From positions 14,136,001 to 14,200,000 of the forward strand of contig CP075495.1 of the NCBI GenBank assembly GCA_021613535.1: a stretch of DNA of 64,000 bases. Reading direction: 5' to 3'. Numbering within the stretch: the stretch's first letter is position 1; every line of letters starts with the position of its first letter. Position numbers and translations under genes: made by a program. This DNA is from Adineta vaga (lineage: Eukaryota; Animalia; Rotifera). Below are positions 3,562 to 64,000 of the stretch, in pieces. The notes under the pieces were generated by a model that made no database searches, was not told where the DNA came from, and saw only the letters and a list, made by a program, of their open reading frames with translations.

Positions 3562-5218
3562 ATGAATCACTGTGTTCGATTAGTATTATTATTTACTCCA
3601 TCGTTAGCTGCTCTTGGTTTACTAGGAATAGCATTCGCTACGAACTGGTGGACAATTGCTTTAGAACGAGTAAATATTTCGTTGAAAATTTACATTGAAA
3701 TTTTCTAAATCAATCTTTATTTTAGAATATTCCTAAAGATAATTCGTTTAATTCTTCAAATGATGAACGAATTCAATCAATCTTAATTCGTGTTCCATAT
3801 TCACGCAGTCTATTTTCGGAATGTGTTGCCTATCGAAATGTAAAAGTACTCGTTTCCAATACATTTGACTTTCGACCAAGTTTTACTTCGGATGAATTAT
3901 TCAAATTAGAAAATGAAAATTGTACAACTGAACAAGTTCAATGTAAAGAAGGTGTTGCTATTGCACGTCCATTAACACGTTGTATCGATAAACAACGTAA
4001 ATGTAATCGTATCGTTGATTGTGAAGATAAAAGCGATGAAACTAATTGTTCTGATACAACTGGTATACATGATCAAGAATTTTTTCATTGTCCAACGAAT
4101 TATATGAAATGTCAAGATAAGAAATCATGTTATCGACCTAGCGAACAAACATGTGGTAAGAAGATAATACAATAAGAGGAAAAATAAATTGAATCATTTC
4201 TTATGCACGAGTTTGTTTTTAGATGGTGTTTCGAATTGTATTGATGATTCAGATGAAATGAATTGTAATGCAGAAAAATGTCAACAAAATAAACATGCTT
4301 ATTGTCCTCGAGATGGTAAATGTGCTCGGCGAGATCATTCAAAACGGTATAATTCAATTCGAATATGGTTATGATGAAATATTCATTTTCTTTTGAAGAT
4401 GTGATGGTATTGTTGATTGTGCTGATCATTCAGATGAAGATGACTGTCAACGATGTAATGGAGATTCATCAATGATTTCATGTGACTCAAAATGTAAGAA
4501 TAACGAAGAAGAAAAGATTCGGCAATAATTATATGGGGTATTTTTAGGTTTTCCTAGTGAATATATGTGCGATGGAATTGTTCATTGTTCAAATTTTCAA
4601 GATGAAATTAATTGTGATGCTTACCCAACAACATCAGAGCGACATAAGAAATTTTCATATAATGGTCAAACCTGTATGGAACAACGTTTTAATCCATTAC
4701 GTTTTCATCCGTTCACAATTGATAAATCGACATTAAAATCCTATAAACATCCAGAACAACGTATTGATTATTTAAATTTGATCTTTTATTCACGATTAAT
4801 CATTTTCTATGGTATTGTCGGTGGATTAATATTTCTTTTATTTGCCGTTCTATCATTATTTTTCTTTGGCTGTTGTCGCCGACATTGTGTTAGTGTACCA
4901 TTTTATTTTTATGGCCTATGGATGTTATTAGCATGGCTATTGATAATGATTGCATTGGGTACGTTTGTTTACATGTGGTTTTGGCAAAAACAAACAGTTT
5001 TAGATGAAGGAAAAAGTTTATTAAATGAAATTATGATTCATGAAAGAAATCCAACTTTACGACGTGTCGAATTTTTTGGTTTAAGCTTTTGGTTAGCATG
5101 TGGAGCGGCATTATCGACACTTATTGGTTTATTATTATCATATTGTGTTTGTTGTACACTTGGTTCATCTCGTGCAGATGATAAAGAATATGAAATCATG
5201 CATATGCATGCATATTAA
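3562..5218 (+). CDS. Claudin/PMP22-family four-TM protein with four LDL-receptor class A repeats in extracellular loop 1
   Basis: Five exons. TM1 LVLLFTPSLAALGLLGIAFATNWW; claudin-like RSLFSEC; four LDLa modules ending CNRIVDCEDKSDETNC, CDGVSNCIDDSDEMNC, CDGIVDCADHSDEDDC, CDGIVHCSNFQDEINC; TM2-TM4 with FGLSFWLACGAA (claudin GWSFWLA motif). Confidence 0.8.
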
Positions 5219-6644: not shown

Positions 6645-9087
6645 TTATAGAATTGTACAGACTTTGGTCGAATGATGTTGAACATCGCTATTGGTTGCTC
6701 GATGTTGTTGAGGTTGTGGTCTATTTAAATTTCGTTTTGTTTTAACCGTTGTTCCTCCATATGAAACACTTATGGGTTTTCCAAAGGAATTCTTTCGTCC
6801 ACCGGGTTCAGCACTAACCGACATTGAACGACCCCATGATGTTGATAAATCTTCATTGACTGCTTTATCATATAAATCATCACGTTCAATTGGATTTGAT
6901 TGTTTTTGTAAACGATGTAAAATAATTCGATATGTTCCATTGATACTATCACGATTGGAAAGAACTTTATTATTGGAATTTTTAGTTGTTTTTTGTAATA
7001 GTTCACTTGTTATACCTAAATCTTCTAATTTTGAATGAGCTTCATTTTCAAATGATGATGTTCTTGGTAAACAATCATTACTATCATTTTTAGTTAAATC
7101 TTTATTTACAGATGTCCAATAATTCGTTAAATTTAATGGTAATGGTTCAAGTTCTTCGGGAAAATTTTGATTACTAAGCCATGGACATGAACGCATCTGT
7201 TCAATCGACCAGCGTTGAACAGCTTCAGGATGAAGAAGGCCACCTAAACATAATAGAAAAAAAGAATATAAAAATACTGTCATTTATGAAATTAATTCTT
7301 TAATATAACAAAGATGCAGATGTATTTTATTCTATTAATCATTTGTTGACAAACATTTTATCTAAGACAAAGAATAATCGAGGTAAATCTTCCTTCCGGT
7401 AGGTAAGCTATTTTTAGTAGTAATTATAAACATCATTTTATTGACAGATGACAATTCCGGCGAAAGAATAAGTTTATAAAAAATTCTATTTATATAGTAT
7501 ATCAATGTTTACCAATAAATATTTGATTTAATCGGTCTAATATAGATATGACTTTTTTCCTTTCTTTTGAACGATCGTCTTCAGAATTAAAAAACCTACT
7601 TGAGACGACGACTCTTCTACTAAATAAGATAATCGTTTTCCTTTATAGCTTTTTTAGAATTCTTACGAATTAGTTGTTGACATTCATCGGATACATGAGG
7701 AGGAATTGAATAATGTCCATCTATAATAGATTTTTTTAATTTTCCAACATTTTCCGCTCGAAATGGCATTAAACCGGTAACCATAAAATATAACAAAATA
7801 CCCATGGCCCAAAAATCGACATAGATTCCAATATAATTTTCATCACGAAATAATTCTGGCGCAGCATAAGGTGGACTACCACAGAATGTTGTTAATGTTT
7901 GATTTTTTTCTGAATATGTACTAAAACCGAAATCACCTAATTTGATCAAACGTTCTTTAGCAAAAAAGACATTTTCACTTTTAATATCACGATGAATAAT
8001 ACCTTGACTATGCTAAATATTCAATAATATATTCATCGTTTTTTCTCTTATGCTTATTTCAAAAGTCGTCTTACCATATGATCAATAGCTGCAGTCATTT
8101 GAGCAAAGATAGACTTTGCTTCATCCTCAGAAAATTTTCCAGCTTTAGATATTCGTGTATAAAGTTCACCACCTGGTGCATATTCTGTAACAATATAAAT
8201 TTCTGTTGGCGTTTCAATGACTTCATATAGACGAATAATATTTGGATGATGTAAACGTTCCATCGAAGTTATTTCACGTAAAAGTAAACGTTGAGTACGT
8301 TCATCAAGTTTAGTTTTATCAAGAATTTTTATTGCAACTTTTTCTATTGAAAGAAAAAACTTATGAATAGTAGTTTTTCTTTCAAAAGAATTGCTTTTGC
8401 TAACAAATAGAATCGATTTAAAATCAATACATATGACATACTGATAAGCATAACTCATATAAATCATGTGTTAAACAATTATGAACAAAAAAGAAGAAGA
8501 AAGATGCATTGAAACGAATAATGTATTATGATGAATGAACTCATTTGGATGAATATCTACTCGTTTGATAAAATTGTTCTCATGGCTATCAACACAATTA
8601 TTTCTTCATGAACAATCAAAAAAAAGTCAGATGTCTCTTTCATCGACAGTAAGGTCATATTAAGAATATAACGGAATTTACCTTTAGCAAGTAAATGCAC
8701 ACCTAATTTGACACGAGAAAAATTGCCTAAACCAATATCACCTCGAATGCGATAAAACCCAATTCGTCGACCAGCTTTTTCTTCAGCTTTAAATCGCATA
8801 TCATGTTGTGAATCGTACAGAAGTTTTTCATAAGCTGTTAAACGCTTTTTTTCATCTTTAGCAAATGCAACTGTAACAGCAGCTGCTGATGGCATACTAC
8901 TTGATGAAGAGAATTCATCATTCATAATAACATTAGTTCGACTAGATTTATGATTTTGAGCTGGAACAGACACCGAATTTACATGATGACGCGTTTGACT
9001 CAATGATGTTCGACGTGATGAATTATTTGTTTCAACAATTGAATTCGATCGCATAGGTGTTGTGGTTCTATTTTCTGCCGTGTTCAT
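6645..9087 (-). CDS. NIM1K: AMPK-related Ser/Thr kinase NIM1
   Basis: LTAYEKL..GRRIGFYRIRGDIGLGNFSRVKLG, KVAIKILDKTKLDERTQRLL.REI, HRDIKSEN, DFGFS, TFCGSPPYAAPELF across multiple exons. Confidence 0.9.
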
Positions 9088-21515: not shown

Positions 21516-22418
21516 TTACATAGCACGAACATTTGTTATTGTAACATCTCCTTTCACTTGCAAAGCTTGAACAGCTTGATATGGTACACGATGTCGATAA
21601 GTAAACCAAGGTTGACCATTGCAGTTTACCTATTCAAATACAAAACAAATCAGTACAAATTCTATCATTATCATCACGCCTTGTTTTACTTGGTAGTGTT
21701 CAGGATAACAGATGAGTTGAATTTCAAAATCTTGTCCTGCTTGTAATGGAAATCCTCCTTGTTTTTCTTCAGCACCCCATCCACCACCTTGACACGAGTT
21801 ACGAACAGCTTCACGTTGATCAAATCGTGGATTGAAATGAAACGCAACATCACCACCTTGATAAGTACTTGTCAATAAATTGAATTCAAAACGTGATGCA
21901 CCATGATTTGATCGACCGTTGATATATAACACACGACCTGCATTGTTATGCAATAACAACAATCACTTCACATTATCAACTTTTTTGATTAGATCAACTT
22001 ACCAGCAAACATATTGATAGGAAGCGGAGTTTCCTAGAAACACAAGAAAGAAAGACAAAAAGGGTTGAAAACAAAGAACAATAAATCTTTCTGACCATCG
22101 AGAATCGCCATGGTTGACCTTGTTGACTGAAACCTGGATAGATTTGAACATTTGATAGATTAACGTCGCCTTTAACAGTCACACTATCAGCAGCATTGAA
22201 TGGCATTCGATGATTGAAATCAGCTATGTGCTGATTATTCACTGCAATCTTAACAAGCAAAGATGATCATGTCACCCGATATTATCTGGTAAAAGTGAGT
22301 CTTACTTTGAAATCTTGTTCTGTGACCGTGATGGTGATGTTGAATGATTGACCATGAGAAATAGTCAATGGTTTTCGTTCTCCATTTCCCCAACCACCAC
22401 TTGGTGCAGCATTTAATA
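21516..22418 (-). pseudogene. 5'-truncated copy of tandem-repeat galectin A
   Basis: Retains the C-terminal CRD and half of the N-terminal CRD (WGNGER instead of WGNEER). Promoter, start codon and the HVNPR segment are replaced by a MITE at ~22412. Confidence 0.85.
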
Positions 22419-33085: not shown

Positions 33086-34841
33086 AAACATCGAGATGAG
33101 AAAGATTAGCAATATAGAAGAAATAGAATAATTTAAACGTTAGTGAATGCACAAGTGTACAGTATGGAAACAGATGTATATTCAAAAAGTGGGGATTTTT
33201 ATTTAAATAAAGCAAAGAGAGAACTAATAATGCAGAACGAGATGGAAAGGACAGAAAAGGTCAATGCGAATAAGGCAGCAATCACAAGATATTTTAATAA
33301 AAGTAATATTATATATTAAGATGTCAATTGATGCAAGCACAATCTTTTTCTGTACTTGAAAATGTGAAAAATGTTCAAACAATTTTAGGAAATCAAAACT
33401 ATTTCTGAACTTCTGTGACACTTGATAAGAAAACATAATATAAAGTAAAAATAATAGATAATAGATAATATCGTATACTTGTCCAAAACTCTTTTTTCTT
33501 TTGAAATCGAATCAATCAGCCATTCTATAATTAACTAGAATCGAGAAATATATAATTTTTTATGTTGCGAAACATTTTCAAGTTCGGATAGATCCAGTTT
33601 TATTAAAGTTTTAAAATTCTTTTCAAAATATTCCTATACATAAATGGATTGAACAAAGGTTTTCTTTTGTTCTGATTTATTTATATGGACACAGATCGCT
33701 AAAAAGTTATTTTTTCTATTAGTACTCAGTTTATTTGCTTTTAAATCATTACAGTTGATGACAATTTACATTCAACTGGAGGTAAACTAATGACAATATA
33801 AGCAATTTAATCAAGATGAATTTAGAATTATCATATATAAAAGAATGTTATATTTAACTAAAGATGATTCATAGTCTTTTATTTTTTCTTAATAGCTATG
33901 TATTGTGCACTTGAAATCGTATCGACTCGAGCACTTTCTTTACATAGCACGAACATTTGTTATTGTAACATCTCCTTTCACTTGCAAAGCTTGAACAGCT
34001 TGATATGGTACACGATGTCGATAAGTAAACCAAGGTTGACCATTGCAATTTACCTATTCAAATACAAAACAAATCAGTATAAACTCTATCATTATCATCA
34101 CGCCTTGTTTTACTTGGTAGTGTTCAGGATAACAGATGAGTTGAATTTCAAAATCTTGTCCTGCTTGTAATGGAAATCCTCCTTGTTTTTCTTCAGCACC
34201 CCATCCACCACCTTGACACGAGTTACGAACAGCTTCACGTTGATCAAATCGTGGATTGAAATGAAACGCAACATCACCACCTTGATAAGTACTTGTCAAT
34301 AAATTGAATTCAAAACGTGATGCACCATGATTTGATCGACCGTTGATATATAACACACGACCTGCATTGTTATGCAATAACAACAATGATTTCACATTAT
34401 CAACTTTTTTGATTAGATCAACTTACCAGGAAACATATTGATAGGAAGTGGAGTTTCCTAGAACACAAGAAAGAAAGATAAAACGGGTTGAAAGCAAAGA
34501 ACAATAAATCTTTCTGACCATCGAGAATCGCCATGGTTGACCTTGTTGACTGAAACCTGGATAGATTTGAACATTTGATAGATTAACGTCGCCTTTAACA
34601 GTCACACTATCAGCAGCATTGAATGGCATTCGATGATTGAAATCAGCTATGTGCTGATTATTCACTGCAATCTTAACAAGCAAAGATGATCATGTCACCC
34701 AATATTATCTGGTAAAAGTGAGTCTTACTTTGAAACCTTGTTCTGTGACCATGATGATGATGTTGAATGATTGACCATGAGAAATAGTCAATGGTTTTCG
34801 TTCTTCATTTCCCCAACCACCACCTGGTGCAGCATTCAATA
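32805..34841 (+). repeat. ~2.0 kb segmental duplication, copy 2 (intact source)
   Basis: Matches 20401-22418. Confidence 0.95.
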
Positions 34842-35215
34842 CTAATTGACGGTCATTGACACGTGGATTCACATGTAAAACGATATCACCTCGACCATTT
34901 GTCAAATTGACTTCGAATCTGTTTCGAGATTTTGTAGAATTAGTCACGTCGCATAGTTATTTGAGGGACGAGAACTTACCTATCACCAGTGGTTGTGCCA
35001 TAGACATGTATTTGAGTGCCATAACTGATGGGTGGTGAGATTTGTGTTTGATAGGGAACATTCTACATATCATTTCTATGTTTTTCTTTTCACATGATGA
35101 GAAAGTGCAGATAACTTACATAGTGTTGACTACTTGTGTGCTGTAGAAAGAAAAAAGAATAGAATGAATGGTTGTATGATAAATGTGGAATATCTGTTAA
35201 ACATACCTGACCCAT
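33940..35215 (-). CDS. Tandem-repeat galectin A (two CRDs, short linker)
   Basis: MGQ/HTSSQHY/NVPY..GDR/FEVNL..LHVNPR..LVLN..WGNEER; second CRD RFEFNL..FHFNPRF..VRNS..WGAEEK..YRHR..VKGDV; no signal peptide. Confidence 0.93.
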
Positions 35216-35835
35216 GTTTGATTAAAGAGAAGAAGAAAGTTAAAGTAATATACTTTTATTTCTGACAGATGTGTGAATAGTGAAACGATGGTTAGAAACG
35301 GAGTAAATTTATAGAGTTGAAGATTATTTGATAATAAATGTAAAAAAAGAGAGAGAGAAAATGACTGTGTAAATATGTGTATTCGACAGTTGTTTTATGT
35401 GGACAGAAATCATTGAGGTTTTTATGTGAAAATGAGATGACTAAGTATCGTTATCAGAAAGACAACAAATCAAGCTGGTGAAAGAGCATAAATGATCAAC
35501 AAATATTCTCATAAAAATAATCTGTTTTATCTTGAAGAGAATGAAAGAAAAGATTAAAACGTCGAATTATATTTGTTTTTCGATGAATATATTCGGTCGA
35601 ATTTGATAATGATAATATTATACCAGCTCACTGTGGTGGTATTATCGATATTTTTAGATATATTATGTATTATAACTTTGAAGATTTTCAAGTAACGCAT
35701 AGTTTTATTTTATAAGTTAAAGTGCAATAAATGATCACAAAAATACTTTGAAAAAACAGTATAATCAAATGTTTAACTATATGAAAAAAGTTAGTAGGAT
35801 TGAGAGAATGTAAACTAAACAAGTCGTCCAGTTTT

Positions 35836-37304
35836 CTACATTTGCCCAATACTATTTATCACAATATCACCTTTATGTTGAAATGCCATGACCTAGAATA
35901 AACAATATTTTTAGTTAAATAGAAATAAATTCTGTATAAATTTATGTATTATGACACGTACGCTTCCGGGTGTGATTTTATGATAATATTCAGCAATAAG
36001 ATGACCATTCATAAATACCTATAATTAAGATTAGGACTATGATTTGCAATCTAAATTATGCGTTACTTACTGTATATTTATCCATTTGACATGAAATCTG
36101 TAGATCGATTGGTGAGCCTGGTATTAGAGGCATGTAGGATGGAAACGGTTGATTTTCTTCCGAACCCCATTGACCATTTCGTCGATGATTTTTAACAATG
36201 GTACGTGAATCAAAACGAGGATTGAAATGGAATGCAATATCATCGGTGTCATTATATCCTTGTAACAGATTTAATTCAAATCGACTAGCACCTTGAGGAA
36301 TGAAGCCACGTACAAAAATACGAGAATTATTATGGATTCTACATGATTGTATTGATGGTACACTACCGCTCTACATTGAATTAAAAGCAATAAGCTGTTT
36401 TTACAAAATCTAATAAAAATACAAACTGAAATCGAAGGAGGTGCTGAGGGAAATCCAAAACCAGCATTGAAATCTCCACCAAATGCCGGTTGAGCTGGTG
36501 GTGGTGGCGGACAATAGGCAAAATCTCCGCCAAAAGATGATGACGATGGGGGTGGTGGTGGACAAAAACCCATATTGCCACCCATACCCATACCCATACC
36601 CATACTGGGAGGAAAGCCCATTGAACCTGATCCTGAATAAACTTGTACAGATTCTAAAGTGACATCTCCTTTTATTTCAACTTGTTGAGCCAAATGCATT
36701 GGTGTACGTTGGTAAAATTCACAGACATGACTATTGTTTACCGCAATCTATCATAGTGTGAAGAAAAATTCAAACATAGTTCCCTTTTAATCATTAACAT
36801 AGACGTCTAGGTACTTTGAAACTGCGGTCTGTTGCTAAAATGACCATCGTAAATCGTGTACCACGATAAAATGGCAATGATTGACGTTCTTCTTGTCCCC
36901 ATGATCCTTGTTGAGCTAAATATCAAAAGAAGATAATATTAAGTGATGAAAAAACTCTATCTCTATCATACCACTGTTAAGAACAAGTGTGCTAGCATCA
37001 AAACGAGGATTGACATGTAAGACGATATCATCTTGATAATTCTTTAAATTGACTTCGAATCTATGTATAATATAAATCGAAAAGGGAATAACCGTTGATA
37101 TTGTTCTTATTAATCAGACCTGTTACCAGTAGGTGTGCCACTAATATGAATTTGTGTACCATTCGAAAGTGGTGGTGAGATTTGTGTAGTATACGGTACT
37201 GGCTGCAAAAATAGAGATCAAACTTATAAAACTCTTTTAACAAAATAAAAATATAAACTATTTACCAATCCGTAATTCATGCCTACTGTGAAATTAGGAT
37301 ACAT
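35836..37304 (-). CDS. Tandem-repeat galectin B with long Pro/Gly/Met/Phe-rich linker
   Basis: CRD1 LHVNPRFD..LVLNS..WGQEER; linker MGMGMGMGG..FCPPPPPSSSSFGGDFAYCPPPPPAQPAFGGDF; CRD2 FHFNPRFD..VKNH..WGSEEN. Confidence 0.93.
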
Positions 37305-38283
37305 TTTGTTTTGAAAAATAAAAATACTGTGTTAGAGTGAATTTATTACGAAAAGATGGTCCTTTGTTCTTTGAATGTAGATAGCGATTTTACTGTTATC
37401 TTTATTTGTCAACTGAGGTGCTACAAGTGTATTTATTTTCTTTCTCTTTTTTCTTATTCATTCTTTTTATTTCTGACGTTTCAGAATATTGATAAGAAGC
37501 CTTTTCTTCGATAACGTCACTATAAATACTGCTTTCGTAGATAATAAATGTCTTTATGAATCATATTATTTGTATATATCCACCTTCAACTTTTACAGAA
37601 AAAGAAACGATTGATAATAAGAATAAAGTCCATTGAAACATATAATTGTCAAGTATTGACTTAATCTTTTTATGATAAGAAAAAAAACACAGAATTTAAA
37701 ACTCTTAGCAACAATGTTTTCCGTCATAACAAGTTGTGTATTTTTTTCAATAGTATTAAAAATGAGCAGAAAGAATAAAATAGAAGATCAAGCTTAGATA
37801 TGATGTAACCTAGTTTTTATTAATTTTCTTATCGTTATAAATCGGGCATGTTTCTTAGAACATCCATATATTATAGGAATGCACTATAAAAAAAAAGTCA
37901 TTTCATTTCTTTTTTCTCAATTAATAAAATAGAATTTTTTCAAATTGCATAAATTATATCTTTGTTCATAAGACATCTTGAGATCTATATATATATATAT
38001 ATATATAAACATGCAATGTGATTCATACACACAATCACTGAGACAAATATGCAGTATTAATGTCGTTGTGTGCTGTATTTCATATAAGTTTTTACAGGTA
38101 ATGTTTACCAATCAACCACGCAAAGCGAGCGAGAAGCATTCAAGTGTAACGATTCAGTAAGAAAAATCTTATATTTTTTTTGTTTTTTCTATTTTTTTCG
38201 CCTCTTCATCGTGTACAAAATGCTATCTTAATACGCGTACAACGAGCAAGTTATTTATCCGTGATAGCAGTAAAAATATACTT

Positions 38284-39045
38284 ATGAAGCTATACGAATT
38301 ATTTATTTTATTTGCTTTAATATTATGTACAAGTGCTAGTTCTCGACAAGGTACATACTTAAAAATCTTTCTCTCCACGCAATATTATTTATATTGATGA
38401 TTATATCATAGATTCGGAACGTGAACTTCATAAATTTCTCAGAAGTAATCATATCACGGAACAACGTCGAGGAGGATATCAACATTTCGGAGCTGGTAAT
38501 ACTTGTATTGTTTAATACTTAGATTATCATTGTTCTGGTGTTTTGTAGATTCTTCTCTCGAAGGAAAACGTTATGTGAAACAAACAGGTAGGATTTAATA
38601 GTTTTAGTTCTTCATTTTTCTATAGATAATGACATTGAATATCACACCACACTTCGTATGAAGTTTTTTTTTATCATGATTCATTCCGTTTTTTCTTTTG
38701 ATTACAGGTTCTGAGCCAACATTACTGAACGTAACTGTAATCCATCGTGGTTTCTATCTTGTTACGGTTAAAATTAATTATCTTCGAAATGGAACACAAG
38801 ATGAATTCGAAACTGATTCGTTCTTCGATGGTACAAATAGAGTAATTCCTTTACAAAAAAATCCATCGGATATTATAACTTATGTACGTATACGTTTCCA
38901 TGTTGTCGGTTCGCTGAGTTTATTTGGTGATTTTCAAGTTATTGATCCCAGATCCCGTGATCTTTGTTTTGTGCTCTCTGGTACTGCATTCACGCCAGTT
39001 TATAGTATTTGCGCACCGGACGAAGATTATACGCGTAAACGATGA
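38284..39045 (+). CDS. Secreted prepro-protein with a standalone cholesterol-dependent cytolysin domain-4-like beta-sandwich
   Basis: Four exons. Signal peptide MKLYELFILFALILCTSASS; pro-region with RR and GKR; mature NVTVIHRGFYLVTVKINY..RVIPLQKNPSDI..IRF..CFVLSGTAFTP, compared from memory with perfringolysin D4 KINLDHSGAYVAQFEVAW..TVIPLEANARNIRI..VSIWGTTLYP. Confidence 0.65.
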
Positions 39046-39703
39046 AATCTATTACATTCTTACTAAAACACTGAATTGACCGAATTTTTTCCATAGAACT
39101 TTCCTAAATATATTTAACGTTTAATTCTTTTCGCTAACAATCTTTTACCAATAAAAGTAATAAAAAGATAAATCAATACTAAATCCATAAATTTTCACAT
39201 ATTCACTTTGTTCTTCGGCAATCTTTTATAATATCACTGGTACTGATGATACTAGAAAGAATGTTCTACTTTCATTTCAAACTAGTGGAAGTTCAATAGA
39301 TGAGATTGAGACGAAATGAAACAGAATATCTATCTTTCATGATAAATACAATTGTTAGAGATGTCTTCATAGTGTTTCTCTTATTCTTCTTTTCCCTCGA
39401 TCATATATCATCATCTCACTGTATCATGTCTAAACCCTCGATTCGTTCGATCATATATATATATATATGCGTTCGTTTTCTCCTCTATAGTCGGTCTGAT
39501 GTATAGTGTGTATGTGTATTTATCATCATCAAATAAACCCCTAACAACAATAGACATTTATTTTCTGAGCGCAACTTTTTCATGTTTTTTCATTTATTCA
39601 TTCAATGAAATTTATCATGTCGAACGGAACAACAGTTCTTTCATGTACATATCTAACTGATTTTTCTCACTTTGACATCTCTATTGAATCTAAACAATGA
39701 CTC

Positions 39704-41757
39704 ATGGCTGTCATAAACTTTTTATTTCTTTTTGTAACATACATCGATAAAAACTGTATCATTTTTGTAATGTTTCGTTCGTGGCTACTCAAATTTTTAT
39801 TATGTTTCTCAAGATCAGAACACAATCAAATGAAAGAACAAGAAACGCCGACATCACATCTCGACGTAGAAAATTTAGATAACAAAAATCAAACACATTC
39901 ATCCATTTATCACATTTTCTCACCGCCTTTAAAACTTTCTATGTTGAAAAAAATTCATTGTCGAATAAAACCATCGTTGACAAATAATCGTCATCACACG
40001 ACACCATGGATATATTCATTCGATCATTCTCAAAATTGTATAAAAACGTTATGTGATAAACATACATCAACGAACATTCATACTAAACGATCACCAAGTT
40101 TAATCGATATTGACTGTGATAATCATCAATTTTCATTATCATCCGTTACGAAATCAAAATCTGAAATCAAGACTCAGTTATGTCGGTAAGAAATATCTTG
40201 AACAACATTATGTTCAGTTTTTATACTTGTGAATACTCAAAGTAAACTCCGTCATTGTCATTATGTGAACAATACTTGTCATTATTTATCTTCATCTATT
40301 CGAAAACAAAACAGTGATACGATGGTAAATACTTATGAACACGACAGTCTGACAAATCCATTGCATCATCACATATCAAGATTTCTATCATCCTGTGATT
40401 GTTCATCACGCAATATCAATTCATCTAAACATCATTCACCACTTTCAACTGATTCTACTATTAATATATCTACATCTACGAATGATATTAGCACATCAAT
40501 TGATAAAACAACCGATAAAATATGGCGACTCAAGATTCATGATCATTTGAATAAAGATGGAAGTCGACACAATGTTATGCATAAAGGTATATATAATAAC
40601 TCGTCAGCATTATCGTAGCAGCATTCATACGTAGGCAGTGAAGAATCTATCCGTCAACGTCGTGATAATAAGCGTGCAAAACGTTCCGAAGAAAAGACAC
40701 AAAAAATTAATGAAAAGATATCGAAAGCAAATGAACGTTGGCAAAAGTATTCCAATATTGATTATGAACTTGTCTTCTTCATTTCACGATATTATGATCG
40801 ACTACCATTATGTTCAACGTGTCGAAATTACTTCATTACTCATCAAACACATTATCTATTCAATGATCCACGTGCATCTATTGATTATGCTGCTGATGCT
40901 GCTCTTCGTTCATCAAGCAATAAAACAATTACATTAAAACAAGCAGCAAAATCGCGATTAATCAAAGATTATGATAAACAAACAGATTTAATTTTTCATC
41001 TTTGTGATACATGTCTATCAAAATGTGAAGATATACGAAACGAATTGAAACAAATCAGTACTGCTCGAAAAGCATCATTAACAAATACAAAAACTTCACT
41101 TTCTCACTCCCCGTCATCAAATATCTTCACATTGAATAATCCTTTTCCAACGCCAAATCATCAACAACCATCATCTATACCACAACATCCAAGTGCTATG
41201 ACTACTAGTAGTTAAATCAAAATTTTGTTTGTATCTATAGATGTGTATTTTATATAGATGTGAATAATCATTTTGAATATCATCAGATGAAATTAAAACA
41301 ACTCTATGAACAAAGTCAACGTTTGATTGTTGCTCAACAAAATCAACAACAAGTACAGTCGAATTTGAATTCGTGTACAAAACAAATGCAGTATCATTGT
41401 CTGGAAATATTACAGCTTCAATATCCTGGATTATTACTATCGTTTCCTTATCGACCATCATCAAATGCATTAAATTTAACTTATCGACATCAAAATTCGA
41501 CTGATGAAAGTGATTCAATTGACGCTGTACAAGATAATGATGAGAATAATGAAAGTACTAGTGATGAAACGAGATGCTGCGAATGCGAGAATGATAAAAG
41601 TCAAGATGATCGTGTGAGAATTCAAACATGTCATGAACTTGTAGAATATTATAGTAAGTCATGTATGTCAATCGATAAACAAATAAGTGTATGTCATTCT
41701 TTGAGATGCACCATTGGACGATTTTATTCGAGGTCTTCAAGTTCTCAAATGTCTTAG
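39704..41757 (+). CDS. Uncharacterised His/Ser/Cys-rich protein with coiled-coil segments
   Basis: Four exons join in frame (donors near 40187, 40588, 41193); CxxC pairs CSTC and CDTC; start codon uncertain (39704 or 39770). Confidence 0.6.
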
Positions 41758-42178
41758 TACTTTCAATCAATATTCATCTTGACTTAGAAATGCAATAACC
41801 ACATTGAATGAAACCTTAAACCTTGTCATTTCTTTTTTCTTTAGTTAATTCTTCTGTGTAATCAATGTATTATTTAGTAAATTATCAAGCACAAGACATG
41901 TATAAAACTCGAAAATTTGTAATACAAAAATCTAAATAAAACATGTCTCGTATGTTCTCTTCATATCTATAATATTGTTGACAAATAAACATGAGGAATC
42001 GCCATTAGTATACGGATTCTTTTTCTCGTTACTGTACTTATTGAATTCATACGAATACTCGTTAATTTAAAAAAATATAATGAAATAAGATTGAAATTAA
42101 ATGAATTGATCGATATTTATCGTTTTTAATCTTTCTAATAATACTTTATTATGAAAACAAAAAACAATACACGAATTA

Positions 42179-43377: not shown

Positions 43378-46300
43378 TTATTGCTGCTGCTGTTGTTGTT
43401 GTTGTTTGATAAGACATTCAAATTGATCTGCAGATTTTAACTGAAGAATAGTTTTTCTTTCCACAGCATTTGCATAAAGTTTTTGCCAATCTTCACTGAT
43501 CTATTCAAATCAAAGGCTATATCAATCATCTGATGAAATTAATAGACTAAATTCTTACATTTAATGAATCCATATGACCTAATATATACATTGCATATTT
43601 TGCTCGAGTTAATGATACATTCAATCGTTGTCGATTAGCAACAAAACCAATTCCTGTTGCTGTTGTTGCAGCATTTACGACTTGTGTTGCTCGAACACAT
43701 GATAAAAGAATCACATCTTTCTGTCGACCTTGAAATGCATCGACTAAATAATAATCAAACTTATAAAGTTAAAAATCGCTTATTTTTCTTTGCTGATGAT
43801 TTTACCCGTTCCAATATCAATTTTATGTTGACGAAGATTACGTTGTGCTAGTTTTTGTTCAATCAATTTCAGTTGATAATTATACGGAGTGATAATACCA
43901 ATTTCTACGTGAATCAAATGAAGAAATGATTATTCGATGGAGGAAATTTCTACATACGATTGAATGGTACTTTTGCTTGTTCATTAATAAATTCGACTAG
44001 ACAAACAATAATTTCGGCTTCAAGTGGATTGCCATAGGATTGTGTCACAGGATCTAATTGTTCTTGCCCGTTGACAACATCAAGTATCATGTATGGTTTT
44101 AAAAGAAATTTTTTCCTATTCAAATTATGAGATAAATTAGGTAAACATGTCAATTGACTGGTAAATTACCGTTTCTGATTGATTGTTTTGTCTGTTTTTA
44201 GTTTTGAGCGATAAATATGCATCGATGGAAATTTACATATTTCATCATGCATTCGATATTGCTAAAAGAATAAGATGAAGATGAAAATACAAGTTTTCGA
44301 TCGACGTGTCTGATGAACATCAACTCTTTCATTCAATAACACTCTTTATAGATCAGGAAAAACAATCATTCAAAAAACAATCTTTGTAACTTACAATATT
44401 AAGCATACGAATAGGATTATTCAGATCGTATTTGAATAATTTGTAAAGACGTTCGAATAATGATTGATTCAAACCAGCTTCAAGTGCTCGTCGAGATAAT
44501 ATTGTTGCAGGACTAGAAGATATTTAATAGAAAAGAAGAACTCATATAAAATCAATTAAAATCTTTACAGTTGTTCAGGATCACCAACAAGTATTATTCG
44601 ATTCATTCCAAGTCGAAGTGGTATATAATTATCGATTTCAATACATTGTCCAGCTTCATCAATAATTAAACAATTAAATAGACTCGGCGCTGTTGATGAC
44701 GATGATGATGATGATGCTTTTGGTAGTTTGTTTGATTTATCATTTTTATTTGATTGTTGATTAACATCCATTGAAGAAAATGAATCAAATATAGAATTAC
44801 CAACATAATTTAGAGTAGAAACGCAACTATGTATATAAAAAAACGTTTAATAAAGACGAAGACGTAGACAATGAAACTTACATATCAGCATTTTGTAATA
44901 ATTCGATTTTAATTTCACGTTCACGTTGACGTCGAGCAGCTTCTGGCATTGTCTAAAGAAAATTAAGAAATTCTATATCATATATTAATCTTCAATAGGA
45001 AATGCATACTTTTCGACATGTCTGTTGTAGTTTTATAATACTAGCAGTGATTTCTTTTAGATTTAATTGTAAATCTTTTAACTAAATAGATTCAACATAA
45101 TACATGTTCACTAATATGATAGATTTTACAAACCTCTTCAGATATCTGATTACCAGCTGATGCTGTTTGTTGTTTCTTTTTTTCTTCTTCAATTCTTTGT
45201 AAGACTTGTTTTTTTTGTGTTTCTTTATTGGCTAAATTTCGTTCAATAGCTTCATTTGCACCACCAGTATTTAATACTAAATCAAATATTCGAACGTATA
45301 TTCTTCTCCAGATAGTTTCAAACCTTCTTCTAAACGTTTTTGAGCAAGTACGTCCAATGAAACATTTTCAATATCTTCACTAACACCACCGCCGCGTGCA
45401 CATCGGATTAATTTGAATGGTACTAGAAAGGTTTCATGCAGACAGAAAATAGTTGAAATCAATTAATCATTTTACATTGTGAAGTTGTTTGATCCGTAGT
45501 TTTACGTGCAAAAACATCAAGTAATCGACGAACGATTTCATTACAACCACCATTTGAAGGACAACATATCAAAATTTTCATTTTCTTTTGTGATCCTCCC
45601 GATGATGTGATCGTTGGTGATTGTTCATTTGATGGTGATGAAGCTAACATTGGCTAAATGATCCATATATAGAGTTTAGTTATACTGATGATTGTGATAA
45701 CTTACTTGAAGAAGAGCACGAACAATACCTGTTATTGTTTGAGATTTACCAGTACCTGGTGGACCTTGACACATATAGACTTTTGCTTGATCATCATCTT
45801 TTGTATCATAAATCATCGAAACAGCTTCGGAAATTACATTTCGTTGAGAGTCATTGTATGCCTAGAATTACAAAATCAAATGTCGTGTATTCCGCACATA
45901 CGTTTATTCTTTTTCTACCTGAAGATATTTTTGTTCCATAAGCTTCTTTTGTGTACTTGTTACTTGAAATATATCCTCAGTTAATGATGGACTTAATAGA
46001 TGTTCGAATAAAGGACATGTACGCATCGATGCTAACGCTTTAAAACGACGTAATGTTGCTGTTAAAGACGTAATTGCCTAAATATTTATTTTGTATTCTA
46101 TTGTTACACAATTCTATTGTTTTTTACTTTAATTTTTATTTGTGATCCATCTAAAATTTTCATTCCATTACCAAATATTCGAATATAATATTCATAACAA
46201 AACCAAACAGGTGGTTTTATTTTTACATCAGGATGATCATCTAAAATTAAATATTTCCATCGTTATTGAATTGATTCTACGAAGAAATAAAAACGAAACT

Positions 46301-49363: not shown

Positions 49364-51501
<2,138 letters not shown>

Positions 51502-57095: not shown

Positions 57096-60000
57096 TCAAA
57101 TATTAACAATATTATCTCGTATGAAGGTCAACCATTTTATTAGAAACAAATGATCTAACGAAGGAAATTCCATTGCAGTCGAGACATCAGATATATATTG
57201 TCTGGCAGATATGTTATGAAATTCATTGAATGAATTACTACATAATAATCCTTCAGCTGCTTCTAATTGCGAATTTTGATCAGATATTGTTTTTAATTTT
57301 ATTTGCCATTCTTCTAGAGAATTATGTTCTAATGGAATATTACATAGATACATAGATTCGATAATATCTGCAAAGACTATCTTGGTATTTGGATTTAGAA
57401 TATGATACACTTTTCCATTGGTGTCCGGCTGAAGAGAACTCAGATAGACAATGCTTTTCGCAGTAAAATCAACAGGTAGTGCTTGAAAACGAGAATTAAT
57501 AATTGTATATGGATAAGAACTGGTCTTCATCATTGCACTGAATAGTAGTGTATGAAGATCAGTTCGATTACAAGCACCTGTTTTCATACTAGCACATATC
57601 GATCCAAGACGATAGATAACAACAGGTAAACCTAAATCACTCGCTCTGGTGATAAGCTTTTCTGAGACCCATTTACTCTGTGCATATCCATTATTTAAAC
57701 CATTTGGAGAAATTTGATTGATCGATACTTCATCATTGATACCATTTGATAGAACACTGATTGTTGAAATATAATGTACAGGTATACAAGTAGATTTATA
57801 AGTTGCTAGATGAATAATTTCATAAGTACCTCTAACATTCGAATCATAGAGTTTACTGTATGGTAGAATGAAATTTACTGCAGCAGCACAATGATAGATA
57901 ATATCGACTTCGTTGGCAAGAGCTTCGTACAATTCGTTATCTAATCCAAAACGTGGTTTTGATAAATCACCTTGTAATGGTATAATTCGTTCTTGAAATT
58001 CATCTTTCCATATCTGATAAAAAAGCATATTCTGTCGAATTCGATTCAGAGCAGTGATGCATGAGTCACATCGTACTAAACAGATAAATTTACAATCTAA
58101 AGGATAGTTCATTAGAAGTTCAGCTAATAGAAAAGCACCGACAAATCCAGTTGTTCCTGTAATAAAGATCATGGAAGGAGACGTAGCTGTAGTTTTGCAT
58201 TTACCAACAGTGATATTTAAGTTTAATTGAGCATCATTCAGTAATTGTGAAACGAAATAATTCGACATCGATGCGATTTTTGTAGGATTTTCGATTAGAG
58301 TTACTAATTGGAAGAGTCATATCAGGTTTTAAAAGTATATCGATTGGTATTGATATTCCTAGATCATTCTCAATTTTACGTGATAGACGAATTGTTGTCA
58401 ATGAATCACCACCTGTCGGAAGAAAATTATTGTTTTCTCCATCATTGACTAATGATTGTTGTGTAGTTGTTTCAACGATAGATTTCAGTTGTTGTTTGAT
58501 GTTATTCAATTGTTTTAATCGATGATGATAATGTGCAGCTAGTTTATGACGACAAAGTTTAAATGTAGAAGTAAGTAAACCATTTTCAACTGTAAATGGT
58601 TCACAATCAATCAATACTCGAGATGGTATTTCATGTTTTCGAAGTAATTCTTTTTCAGCTATAGAACGAAGATCTTGTAGAATGGTTTCGCAAAATTTTG
58701 AGTTCGCGTTGTCAATATCAAAATCTTCTATGTCATGTTTCAATGCATACGCTTTTGCATATGCATGATTAGGTACAATGACAGCAACAACAGAATCTGC
58801 TAGAAGATCGCCATGAATGTAAATTTGTTCAACAAAATGACTTTGAATAAAGACATTCTCAAGAGAATCTGGCGAAATAAATTGTCCTTGTGATAATTTA
58901 AAAAAATTCTTTTTCCGATCAATCACATTAACATGACGTTTGTCGAATGGAAGATAAACTATTTCGACAATATCACCAGTACGAAAGAATCCATCTTCTG
59001 TAAAAGCTGCTTGAGTTTCTTCAGGATTGTTAAAATATCCAGAAAACATCTCATTAGTTTTGACGCATAATTCTCCTCGAGGATATGGTTGATCATCAAC
59101 TGTATAACCCATTTCTGGAACAGATATTAGGCGATATTGTAATGTGCTATCAATAATATTGTCTTTTGCAATACTTCCACATTCAGTGATTCCATAGGAT
59201 TCATTCACATAACAGTGTTTAAAACATTTCGTCATGAAATCAAAAACAGCTACACTTATCTTAGCCCCACCAGTAGAGATTAATTTACATCTTGTTGGAA
59301 TGGCTTCAAAAGTCGATCTTCTTCTGCTTTAGCAGCTTCTGATGAAAGATAAGATGTTGTTAGTGATAAAGTTGCCATGAATTCTGCATAGAATTTATTC
59401 CATATTGCAGGTGTTGCAGAAAAAATTGTTGGTCGTACTAATGCTAATTCTTCTACGAAACGAGACATATCTCCTGTCGAAAATCCAGTTCTTCCTCCAC
59501 ATAAAAAAGTTCGTATAACAGCATCCCGACCAGTCGCCCATGCTAATGGTTCATAACAAAAATTGATGTAATCAAAAGATAATGGACGACAAAATTTTGA
59601 GAACATAATTCGGTAAATGCTTTCTGATATTATGGCACCTTTAGGAAGACCTGAACTTCCACTTGTATATGTAATTGTGAAACATTCATTTGGATCAATA
59701 TTAACTGTTGGGTACTGTTTATCGATGCCATACGTTTCAATATCATTCATATAATGAATGGACAAATCATTGTTTACCATGTCTACAAAAATTAGACAGT
59801 CAATCATTTTGTCAATAGAATTCTGTAAATCTTACTTAATATTTTGTCAGAAATGGATTCTATACATATAATATGACGAAGACATGGACATTGACTATAC
59901 AAATGAATGAATCTCAACAGCATTTTTATATCACAAACAACTATCGATAACTTTGTATGATTAATAATATAAACAAGCTCACGATCGTTGAAAAAACAAT

Positions 60001-60487
60001 AGATTGGTACACTAATTATATTCTGCATAATACATGCAAAATCAACAATGACCCATTCTGGTTGATTCTTTGCACAGATGCCAAGATAACTACGTGCTTC
60101 TACTAAAGTTCGTAATCCATTTCCAAAGTTTTTCACACGATTATTTACTGTTTCATAGGTTAACCAAGAGTATGTGTCTGTATACAACAATGGATTAACT
60201 AGATCAACATCACGTGCACCTAAACAATGCCGATCACGATACATAGTTGCAGCGATTTGTATATTATTAGCCATGGTTGTACTTGCATAATTTTCTGATT
60301 TTTCTTCAAGTCGATATGCGAGTTCACGCATCAATCGATGACGATGTGGTGGATTCAATGTTCTAGTACATCCATCACATAAATCATAATTCTCACAAAC
60401 AGTACACGTGAATCGAAACTCACCATGATTTAATACACGATCACATCGATCACAATTCCAACTGGATGATTGCGGTGTAGCTATCAT
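57096..60487 (-). pseudogene. ZZ-finger fused carboxylic acid reductase (NRPS-like A-T-R); one intron and two frameshifts
   Basis: ZZ: CDRC..RFTCTVCENYDLCDGC..HRH. A domain: YTSGSSGLPKG, ESYGITECG, YRLISVPEMGY..PYPRGEL, GFFRTGD, DRKKNFFKLSQG. T domain: GGDSL. R domain: ITGTTGFVGAFLL, GYAQSKWVSE. Intron 59783-59835; frame breaks near 59305 and 58310. Confidence 0.85.
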
Positions 60488-60843
60488 ATTTATATTAATC
60501 TTAAATAAAGTCGAAAACTATGAATGAACAAAGAATATCTCGAAACAAATATGCATTAACTTTCGAAATAATCAACTATACTTACTATCAATGTCATTTG
60601 CTTTTATTTTCCTTTTTCGACAAATGATTGTGAAAGACATACTCTACAGAGTGATTCATCGCTTTGTCATCGACAAACATGTCATTCTGTGAAAATAGAA
60701 TGAATGATGTCTATGTTAAGAGCAAATATTACGAATAGGAGTGATTTCATAGAATATAGTATTGTTCTTGATACAATTAGATTTATTATAAATAACATAT
60801 TTCAAATTATATACAGAAAAAGAAAAACGATACTCTTTTTATT

Positions 60844-62628: not shown

Positions 62629-64000
62629 TTAATTTGGATTTGCTAGTGCAGCAATCTCCGATGTATCAAGTGCACGACTCCACATTTTAAATTCATCAAT
62701 ACTGCCATAATATGGTTGTGCTTGTATAACTGTTCCATTCCTACCTGCCAAAGGATTGCCTAAAGTTACGAAGATAGGCGGTGTTTCTATTGTTGGCATA
62801 TATTCAGTTCCAGGACCCGGTACCGAAATTTGAAGTGAACCATTGTAATAAAGCGAGACGTTATTTTGAGAAAAGCTGAAAGTGAAAGCTATGTGACTCC
62901 ATTCATTAACAGGGATAGTCGTCGGTGCTTCAAGTGTGAATGATGTTGGGAGTTCTGCTATTATATTGCCTGATGCACTCAAGCCTAAATAAGGTCGTGC
63001 TTGAGATGTGTCATTGATACCCGTAGTTCCAGATAAATAAATCAGTACACAATCACGCAATAAATATGGTAAAATGAAAAATGTAAAGGAAAAATCACTG
63101 TAAGAAGTTGTAAGACTAGTCATACCATGTGTCTAAAAATTAAAATTATTAGATAAAACTGATGTATAAATATGAATGAAAGATAAATACCTGAAAGTAT
63201 GTAACATTGGTAGATATAGAGAATCCATCACCTACACGACCTGCTGTATTGTACATACTACCTGTAATGACTCCATTGTTTTCATACGGTCCTGAATCTA
63301 AATTTACTTGAGGATTTGTAAATGAAAAAGAAGAAAATAAGGATGCATCGTTTGATATTTCACATAAAGATTTAATACGTGTCGTTATAGATACATGATC
63401 AATTTGACCTTCGAAAAATTCTGACGTTCCATATAATGATCCAATATAGAATGAACTATTCTCCGTGGAAACAAGTGTCACATCAAATGTAGAATCTAGT
63501 TTGCCATTAATATAAATTTCTTGTTTTCCTAGATTATGATTATAGATCAGAGCAATATGATACCATCTATTCATCCCAAGATGGGTTCCACTAGAACGTA
63601 GTTCTTCCGAGATAGAGACAATACCATTGGTACCAACACGTAAGGTTAAGTCATTTTGTGATATCAATATCATACTGAAATCAGGAGTGGTCGGACGAAT
63701 CCATAATTCAATAGTAAAACTGGTAGAAGACAAACTAATGTAAGGTACTACAATGTGTGATGAACTTCCAACTGCAAGATGAATAGCCGCATTGATATAT
63801 CCATTATTATCGATGAGAGCACCATTCATCATTGTTCCATGATAAGATCCTTTAGCATCGGTTGCATCATGATCAAAACGCCAGAGTGCTATAAGATCAG
63901 TATCGAATGAAGGAAACTCACCAGTTACACAGGTCGTGGCTAAAATAAAAATAAAAATGAAATATCATTTTAAAACGTTGTTCAATACAAACGTGTTTCG
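62629..64000 (-). CDS. Tandem LamG/concanavalin A-like (Laminin_G_3) domain protein, 3' part
   Basis: LIALWRFD, SFTIELWIRP, WYHIALIYN..IYINGKLD..YIG..FFEGQIDHV; second repeat WSHIAFTF..LYYNG..YYGSIDEFKMWSRAL..EI..LA. Confidence 0.85.

Follow-up and report, generated by a model that had tools for sequence, protein, structure and literature searches.

Textbooks present domain 4 (D4) of the cholesterol-dependent cytolysins (CDCs) as the domain that binds cholesterol, and it is regarded as a part of these toxins. A gene of the rotifer Adineta vaga, lying in a window of 64,000 nucleotides (the whole stretch of DNA analysed here; contig CP075495.1, positions 14,136,001 to 14,200,000), was originally predicted to encode such a domain as a secreted protein of its own. 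This raises the question of whether an animal carries a D4-like protein, whether that protein descends from a toxin, and what it might bind.

The gene is I4U23_010169, which encodes 175 aa in four exons (Table 1); the exon chain reproduces the NCBI model exactly, and the exon frame at 38713-39042 matches the NCBI protein at 100%. Its three introns are all GT..AG and all in phase 1. A possible fifth exon of 30 nt (38626-38655) is used in no joint observed. Splicing was seen in contigs of seven of the eight runs, which come from six coded studies, are in no case on record as RNA and have contig depths that give no expression ranking: all three introns are spliced out in the contigs of X1, X5, X8, X2, X17 and X18, the third is spliced out in that of X9, and X15 is unspliced. 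The poly(A) tails begin at 39183 and 39191, and the 5' end probably lies near 38239, judging from an adaptor-like loose end. Because of these spliced contigs and poly(A) ends, the gene can be described as transcribed, spliced and separate from its neighbours. Its introns, transcription and conserved neighbour all mark integration in the animal genome, and the GC content of its exons (0.372) matches the 0.368 of the adjoining galectin gene. No second D4-like copy was found within the window.

Table 1. Features of the D4-like gene and its two neighbours (window positions), and D4-like ORFs on clostridial records (positions within the record named)
Feature	Position	Strand	Evidence
Galectin gene, head-to-head neighbour (lower end approximate)	35780..37304	-	Pfam; start codon 37304
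Exon 1, coding part: start codon (ATG at 38284) and predicted signal peptide, 22 codons + 1 nt	38284..38350	+	sequence, hydrophobic stretch, splice joint
Exon 2: charged pro-region with RR pair	38412..38495	+	gene model and spliced contigs
Exon 3: end of pro-region	38549..38587	+	gene model and spliced contigs
KR dibasic, predicted convertase site, 13 residues upstream of first domain Asn	38566..38571	+	sequence; cleavage predicted
Exon 4: entire CDC-D4-like domain (predicted eight-stranded beta-sandwich), basic C-terminal tail, stop codon (39043-39045)	38708..39045	+	fold model and profile comparison
NVT N-glycosylation sequon, start of strand 1, at end opposite tip	38728..38736	+	sequence and DSSP
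Tip loop L2 equivalent, HRGFYL	38743..38760	+	DSSP and alignment
Tip loop L3 equivalent, DSFFDGT	38815..38835	+	DSSP and alignment
HVVGSLSLF hairpin in place of Trp-rich undecapeptide, no Trp, 5 residues shorter	38899..38925	+	alignment and profile-profile comparison
Last hairpin, C87-C102 (predicted disulfide) enclosing loop L1 GTAFTP (38980-38997), AF at Thr-Leu positions	38965..39012	+	DSSP and alignment
Poly(A) addition sites; transcript stops short of next gene	39183..39191	+	read contigs
Downstream gene, no Pfam match	39701..41776	+	Pfam scan
Clostridial D4-like ORF, record L008	3881-4291		
Clostridial D4-like ORFs, record L009	2959-3363 and 3903-4304		
Clostridial D4-like ORF, record L014			
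Clostridial D4-like ORF, record L015			

As had been proposed, the whole beta domain is encoded by a single exon, exon 4. Neither this exon nor a six-member profile gave a match among Pfam and PDB sequences; at E<=10, Pfam returned no family for exon 4 or for any of six close members, the cut-off of PF17440 was not reached, and the best hit of a 21-row profile among PDB sequences was only suilysin D4 (E 0.77). The AlphaFold2 model of exon 4, built from the 21-row alignment with no templates, is an eight-stranded sandwich with a pLDDT of 93.5, and the bacterial rows contained in that alignment may have steered it to the D4 fold. Foldseek found 26 matches to this model at E<=0.001, and every one of the 24 listed among them is a CDC entry (TM 0.45-0.64). 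In a wide search of 48,161 chains, three CDC chains came on top, with pneumolysin D4 at Z 11.3 (rmsd 2.4, 95 aligned) versus Z 8.1 for the best non-CDC, an unrelated domain; in a second structure comparison the best 25 rows were all CDCs, with perfringolysin O (PFO) at Z 11.5. At E<=0.001, nothing matched among viral structures. According to the profile-profile comparison, the 21-row family alignment matches true CDC D4 with a probability of 91% (E 1e-6, 91 columns), pairing HRGFYL with HSGWYV, VIPLQ with EINLPG, HVVGSLSLF with the undecapeptide hairpin and GTAFTP with GTSLSP; the six closest sequences alone gave just 29% over 16 columns. Because of the former match, the D4 landmarks, which the original prediction had recognised in their order, exceed chance, and the exon-4 domain is predicted to take the CDC D4 fold. 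C87 and C102 (exon-4 frame) lie in register across the last hairpin of the model, which agrees with the suggested disulfide; the bond is predicted. From the strand order, four loops converge on one tip, with the disulfide and the sequon at the opposite end.

Although the fold resembles D4, the features that define a CDC are missing. Domains 1-3 (PF01289) are absent from the 175-aa protein, whose transcript is polyadenylated at the sites in Table 1, so the standalone architecture that had been proposed holds. The undecapeptide ECTGLAWEWWR, as given in PMC3390400 and PMC11416283, is absent from exon 4, and the alignment confirmed both its replacement by the shorter, Trp-free hairpin and the change of TL to AF. 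At the Thr-Leu positions TL is found in four of five CDCs and 36 of 60 bacterial repeats, and in none of 20 bdelloid-type domains. In 84 of 87 non-CDC domains, but in none of five CDC domains, a Cys pair closes the last hairpin, which holds GT...P. Because it has no domains 1-3, no undecapeptide, no Thr-Leu pair and no score above the PF17440 cut-off, I4U23_010169 is, by its sequence, not a CDC, and its likeness to D4 would lie at most in the binding surface.

Relatives of the rotifer domain were found among pore-less proteins. A profile search of 1.84 billion representatives led to 18 matches. Eleven are bdelloid-type: three are named (a second A. vaga gene, A. steineri and Didymodactylos carnosus), and the other eight were assigned from where they fall in the tree, except for one fragment that was assigned from its similarity. 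Four more are bacterial-type proteins built from 3-5 D4-like repeats in tandem; a papain-family protease precedes the repeats in two of these, and one exceeds the PF17440 cut-off. One further match (P0025) is a standalone secreted form. The remaining P0012 and P0013 were dropped as repeat-driven, since the iterated profile recovered neither; P0013 is an Ig/cadherin adhesin, and P0012 was too long for the Pfam scan. A search for longer proteins added 17 matches, namely 15 repeat proteins and two bdelloid "fusions" of 740-799 aa. The latter were rejected as chimeric gene models: their extra part maps to the next gene of the window, the two parts come in opposite orders in A. ricciae and A. steineri, for each of which other models list the genes separately, and the A. 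vaga transcript stops before the next gene. No homologue found by the profile and longer-protein searches carries domains 1-3, and the named non-bdelloid relatives are all bacterial.

Nine of the bacterial proteins (P0015, P0020, P0049, P0050, P0052, P0053, P0055, P0056 and P0059) are proteases of the papain family that carry four or five D4-like repeats; most of the repeats keep GTTL, and the proteins might possibly be targeted to membranes or sterols; a single-sequence model of one such fusion was too poor for use (pLDDT 47). Eight Clostridium plasmid records (C. botulinum, C. novyi) encode standalone D4-like ORFs that lack a signal peptide; some of these have a hydrophobic tip and Cys-rich extensions. 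As a guess, they might be spore-surface proteins. A second, AT-rich eukaryote contains a relative of P0025 (record L002, 233-934) with four introns, three of them within the domain, tail-to-tail with an NSF gene that scores 74 bits to mammalian NSF versus 23 to yeast Sec18. Its domain retains HKGAYV, GTTF and two tip Trp, and is more CDC-like than the rotifer gene. The ESM Atlas offered leads only, placing P0025 near a 112-member cluster (89% eukaryotic, Mucoromycota commonest, 0.95). The query lies near bacterial clusters whose members are hypothetical proteins of 105-111 aa (0.92-0.93); in one of these clusters 17% are PF17440. In the phylum of G001, the family profile matched one of 301 genomes, the seed genome itself, and PF17440 matched one of 401. 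Some family members may already stand under PF17440 in family databases. The literature covered, in full text with few subscription journals and judged by title and opening of the abstract, held no account of standalone D4-like proteins or of rotifer cytolysin genes.

In total, 92 domains were gathered, comprising 20 bdelloid-type and five CDC D4 domains along with bacterial repeats, the second eukaryote and clostridial ORFs. A profile of the 20 bdelloid domains gave median scores of 31 bits for the second eukaryote, 22-26 for bacterial repeats and 15 for clostridial ORFs, compared with 1.7 (range 0.9-2.6) for the five CDC D4s, scores that favour the pore-less relatives because these were collected with the bdelloid profile; shuffles reach 4.5 bits (285 of 360 shuffles reported). 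The query sequence alone gives the same ranking of these groups, and its best bacterial pairwise similarity, 25-28 bits, is to pore-less repeats. By these scores I4U23_010169 is closer to pore-less D4-like proteins than to CDCs. Since those nearest relatives already show both the Cys pair and the absence of the undecapeptide, the two characters were probably inherited from the pore-less family and would not be rotifer inventions.

The tree was built from 68 of the 92 domains (107 columns; 22 near-redundant bacterial repeats and two fragments were left out). Bdelloid domains form one clade (98/94 in this tree, and 99/98) with two subfamilies (100/95 and 100/97), here called A, to which the query belongs, and B, which includes the paralogue UJR20692.1; one Didymodactylos domain falls in each, and CDCs stand apart (100/99). 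According to the sequences, the gene is old within bdelloids, and the two subfamilies predate the split of Didymodactylos and Adineta. AU tests rejected none of the sister groups proposed (bdelloids with CDCs, p 0.29 and 0.42; with the second eukaryote, 0.28; with bacterial repeats, 0.38), and a 58-row tree, from which clostridial and Saprospiraceae rows were also left out, joined bdelloids to the second eukaryote at 79/56.

The AU values for bdelloids with CDCs and the CDCs at the head of the solved-structure matches would be compatible with the capture of a complete CDC whose domains 1-3 were later lost in rotifers and whose remnant now serves as cholesterol sensor or toxin decoy. We consider this very improbable: the bdelloid profile scores CDC D4s at the level given above against medians of 15-31 bits for pore-less relatives, the Cys pair is a mark of the latter and not of CDCs, and domains 1-3 occur on no homologue found. 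The proposed domestication from a CDC toxin is accordingly not supported, the nearest relatives being pore-less D4-like domains with Cys pair and without undecapeptide. Its horizontal acquisition fared better: it is likely for this real, integrated animal gene, although no sister group is supported (AU p 0.28-0.42). An ordinary metazoan family would have spoken against the original prediction; the searches run revealed no broad metazoan family, and their matches include no named non-bdelloid animal, but L002 comes from an intron-bearing eukaryote whose NSF neighbour is much closer to mammalian NSF than to yeast Sec18. Because of this patchy spread and the high level of horizontal transfer in bdelloids described in PMC11258130, a horizontal origin from a bacterial, fungal or other eukaryotic donor is likely, the alternative being old inheritance followed by losses. 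The word "cytolysin" does not occur in the main text of that fungal-infection study, and the supplements covered gave GO terms only. The ancestor was likely a free D4-like module, not a truncated toxin, gained from a microbe before the Didymodactylos-Adineta split.

The N-terminus of I4U23_010169 is hydrophobic (mean KD 2.72, residues 6-17), which agrees with the signal peptide proposed for it, predicted here from hydrophobicity. Exons 2-3 encode a charged pro-region carrying RR and KR, and a dibasic pair lies 10-13 residues ahead of the first domain Asn in all five N-complete subfamily-A rows examined, two of which are from the same species. An NxT occurs at the place equivalent to the sequon in six of the seven subfamily-A rows listed. 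The product is likely to be secreted and likely to be cut at the dibasic site to a domain of about 115 aa. It would enter the ER, where the sequon would be glycosylated at the end of the domain far from the tip, and a convertase would then cleave the pro-region at the dibasic site, freeing the D4-fold domain.

What the freed domain binds may be approached through its tip. In CDCs, loops L1-L3 and the undecapeptide meet at the membrane-facing tip (PMC11416283). The four tip loops of the query contain seven aromatics, as against medians of seven in subfamily A, seven in CDCs, two in subfamily B and three in bacterial repeats, counted in loop windows that were drawn from the query DSSP and take in flanking strand residues. 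Interfacial hydrophobicity, summed over the same windows with side-chain exposure not part of the score, is +3.4 for the query, with medians of 0.3 (A), 0.5 (CDC), -9.3 (B) and -3.0 to -3.8 (repeats); three subfamily-A rows have sums of -3 to -4.5. Subfamily A has a Phe-rich tip, with a hydrophobic residue followed by Phe in place of Thr-Leu in 11 of 12 domains, and subfamily B a polar one. The exon-4 domain has no Trp and a net charge of -1.

Previous work showed that changes of T490/L491 strongly affect binding of PFO (PMC5744101), and a leafhopper CDC whose Thr-Leu pair is mutated did not bind cholesterol (PMC13670155); because of both, cholesterol recognition of the CDC kind by the rotifer domain is, by analogy, unlikely. 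PFO D4 variants with non-conserved residues still bind cholesterol (PMC11416283; PMC9057304), so the AF pair is itself compatible with sterol binding. The reading we tentatively prefer, and regard as quite possible, is a secreted, processed, non-lytic protein with putative binding to lipid-rich surfaces. F16/Y17, F39/F40, V66/V67 and F95 would insert shallowly into an outer leaflet or another hydrophobic surface; this target could belong to the animal itself or to microbial cells, either those of its gut or those of its body surface; and the bound domain would act as a tag, coat or sensor, without pores. The four to five D4-like domains fused to bacterial papain-family proteases illustrate the use of the fold as a binding module elsewhere.

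The same bacterial arrangement, in tandem arrays and on proteases, is also that of carbohydrate-binding modules, and the fold matches include pneumolysin entries titled sugar-binding or mannose-complexed (4zgh, 4qqq). The protein could then be a secreted lectin whose sandwich binds glycans of microbes, food or mucus, alongside the divergently transcribed galectin, which starts 979 bp away. Sugar-stacking sites mostly use Trp/Tyr, however, and the tip is Phe-rich without Trp; carbohydrate-binding modules reach Z 5.7 at most in the structure search, and the link kept in three Adineta species is to the gene on the side away from the galectin. We regard the lectin as unlikely. A comparable, rather low chance is given to an extracellular protein-binding or structural module, such as a receptor ligand or a component of adhesive, cuticle or egg-shell, in which the disulfide closes a scaffold. 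Subfamily B would fit this, as it retains the fold and the Cys pair with a polar tip, as would the clostridial standalone members with Cys-rich extensions and no signal peptide, and the signal-pro-dibasic layout is like that of processed secretory proteins. It leaves unexplained why subfamily A, between A. vaga and A. steineri, has conserved the Phe of its exposed loops although its leader has diverged.

The membrane-compatible tip of subfamily A, which led us to prefer a non-lytic binder, would also suit the aiming subunit of a two-part pore former, where the D4-like protein binds the membrane and recruits a separate MACPF/CDC-fold protein. Two-component CDC-like toxins do exist, with a small subunit without domain 4 (PMC11169675), and whole CDCs have been acquired by animals (PMC13670155). 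Nevertheless, no PF01289 or MACPF match was found in the 69 of 81 long window frames scanned with Pfam, neither translations nor annotations revealed a partner next to the bacterial members examined, and the binding domains of CDC-like toxins are unrelated to D4 (PMC11169675), so we hold this for quite improbable. A wider proposal is speculative and unlikely, if a little less so: free D4-like domains would be an old mobile targeting module and the source of the cholesterol-binding tip of CDCs, and bdelloids would have captured one and made subfamily A into a processed, secreted probe able to tell sterols apart and to label the membranes of fungi or microbes. It might also direct a separately encoded pore former to them, and would amount to an animal innate-immune receptor made from the toxin-tip fold.

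The surroundings of the gene are an ordinary animal neighbourhood. The galectin stands head-to-head at about the 1 kb stated originally, and nothing beyond adjacency ties it to the D4-like gene. It is the nearest of three galectin loci in a row on the minus strand (21633-22266, 33864-35350 and 35780-37304) and contains an exon for a Gly/Pro-rich linker. Near 20.8 kb and 33.2 kb there are short stretches whose scores against one and the same profile are identical, as a local duplication would give. The downstream gene adjoins the D4-like gene in three Adineta species, A. vaga, A. ricciae and A. steineri; in the last of these it lies on the other side. It has little transcript cover in the runs used. 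We also identified an NRPS-like gene (57099-60517, minus strand) with a ZZ zinc finger, an adenylation domain, a carrier domain and a terminal reductase, which is a candidate for the sort of foreign biosynthetic gene that PMC11258130 discusses. Other matches in the window are LamG-like lectin domains (62632-63964, minus), arginyl-transferase ATE1 (50049-50522, minus), an AAA_11 helicase (43547-44846, minus), a protein kinase (7623-8470, minus) and an LDL-receptor class A domain (3726-4172, plus).

If a pore-less, disulfide-closed D4-like family spans bacteria, two or more eukaryote lineages and an animal, the fold would count as an independent targeting module, which bears on how CDCs got their aim, and its natural tip variants (TL, AF, polar) allow asking what the fold binds without the undecapeptide. 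Bdelloids would gain an old, duplicated and expressed candidate foreign gene missed by Pfam and PDB sequence searches; the precedent of whole CDCs in insects makes the rotifer case less surprising. The most interesting point is therefore the pore-less family itself and the ligands of its differing tips.

Compared with known systems, the rotifer domain shares with CDC D4 (PF17440, Thiol_cytolys_C; perfringolysin O, pneumolysin, listeriolysin O) a predicted eight-stranded sandwich (Z 11.3-11.5, rmsd 2.4-2.7, 95-98 aligned), the motif order H.G.Y then GT...P and an aromatic-rich tip. It differs from CDC D4 in lacking domains 1-3, the undecapeptide and Trp, in having AF at the Thr-Leu positions with 8-22% identity overall, and in adding the Cys pair, the signal and pro-region, introns and a sequon. 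The pore-less bacterial proteins (papain C1 with 4-5 repeats, as in Saprospiraceae MBL7827008.1 and a Geobacter MAG; 3-4-repeat proteins; clostridial WP_013721008.1), which are annotated as hypothetical and in some cases exceed the PF17440 cut-off, are like the rotifer protein in their Cys pair, short hairpin and absence of pore domains; unlike it, they are tandem or protease-fused, have mostly polar tips, and show no dibasic pro-region or introns. Leafhopper CDCs (PMC13670155) are likewise bacterial CDC-fold genes domesticated and duplicated in an animal, and some with a mutated Thr-Leu pair lack both cholesterol binding and toxicity, but they are whole toxins of 490-680 aa, whereas the rotifer protein has just the fold of the binding domain and belongs to a family separate from CDC D4. 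Finally, in the two-component CDCL toxins of Bacteroidota (PMC11169675), the pore core and the binding domain are separable, as in the rotifer case. Domains 1-3 are retained in CDCLs, whose binding domains do not resemble D4 or are missing, so that the rotifer protein is their mirror case, a D4 fold without the core.
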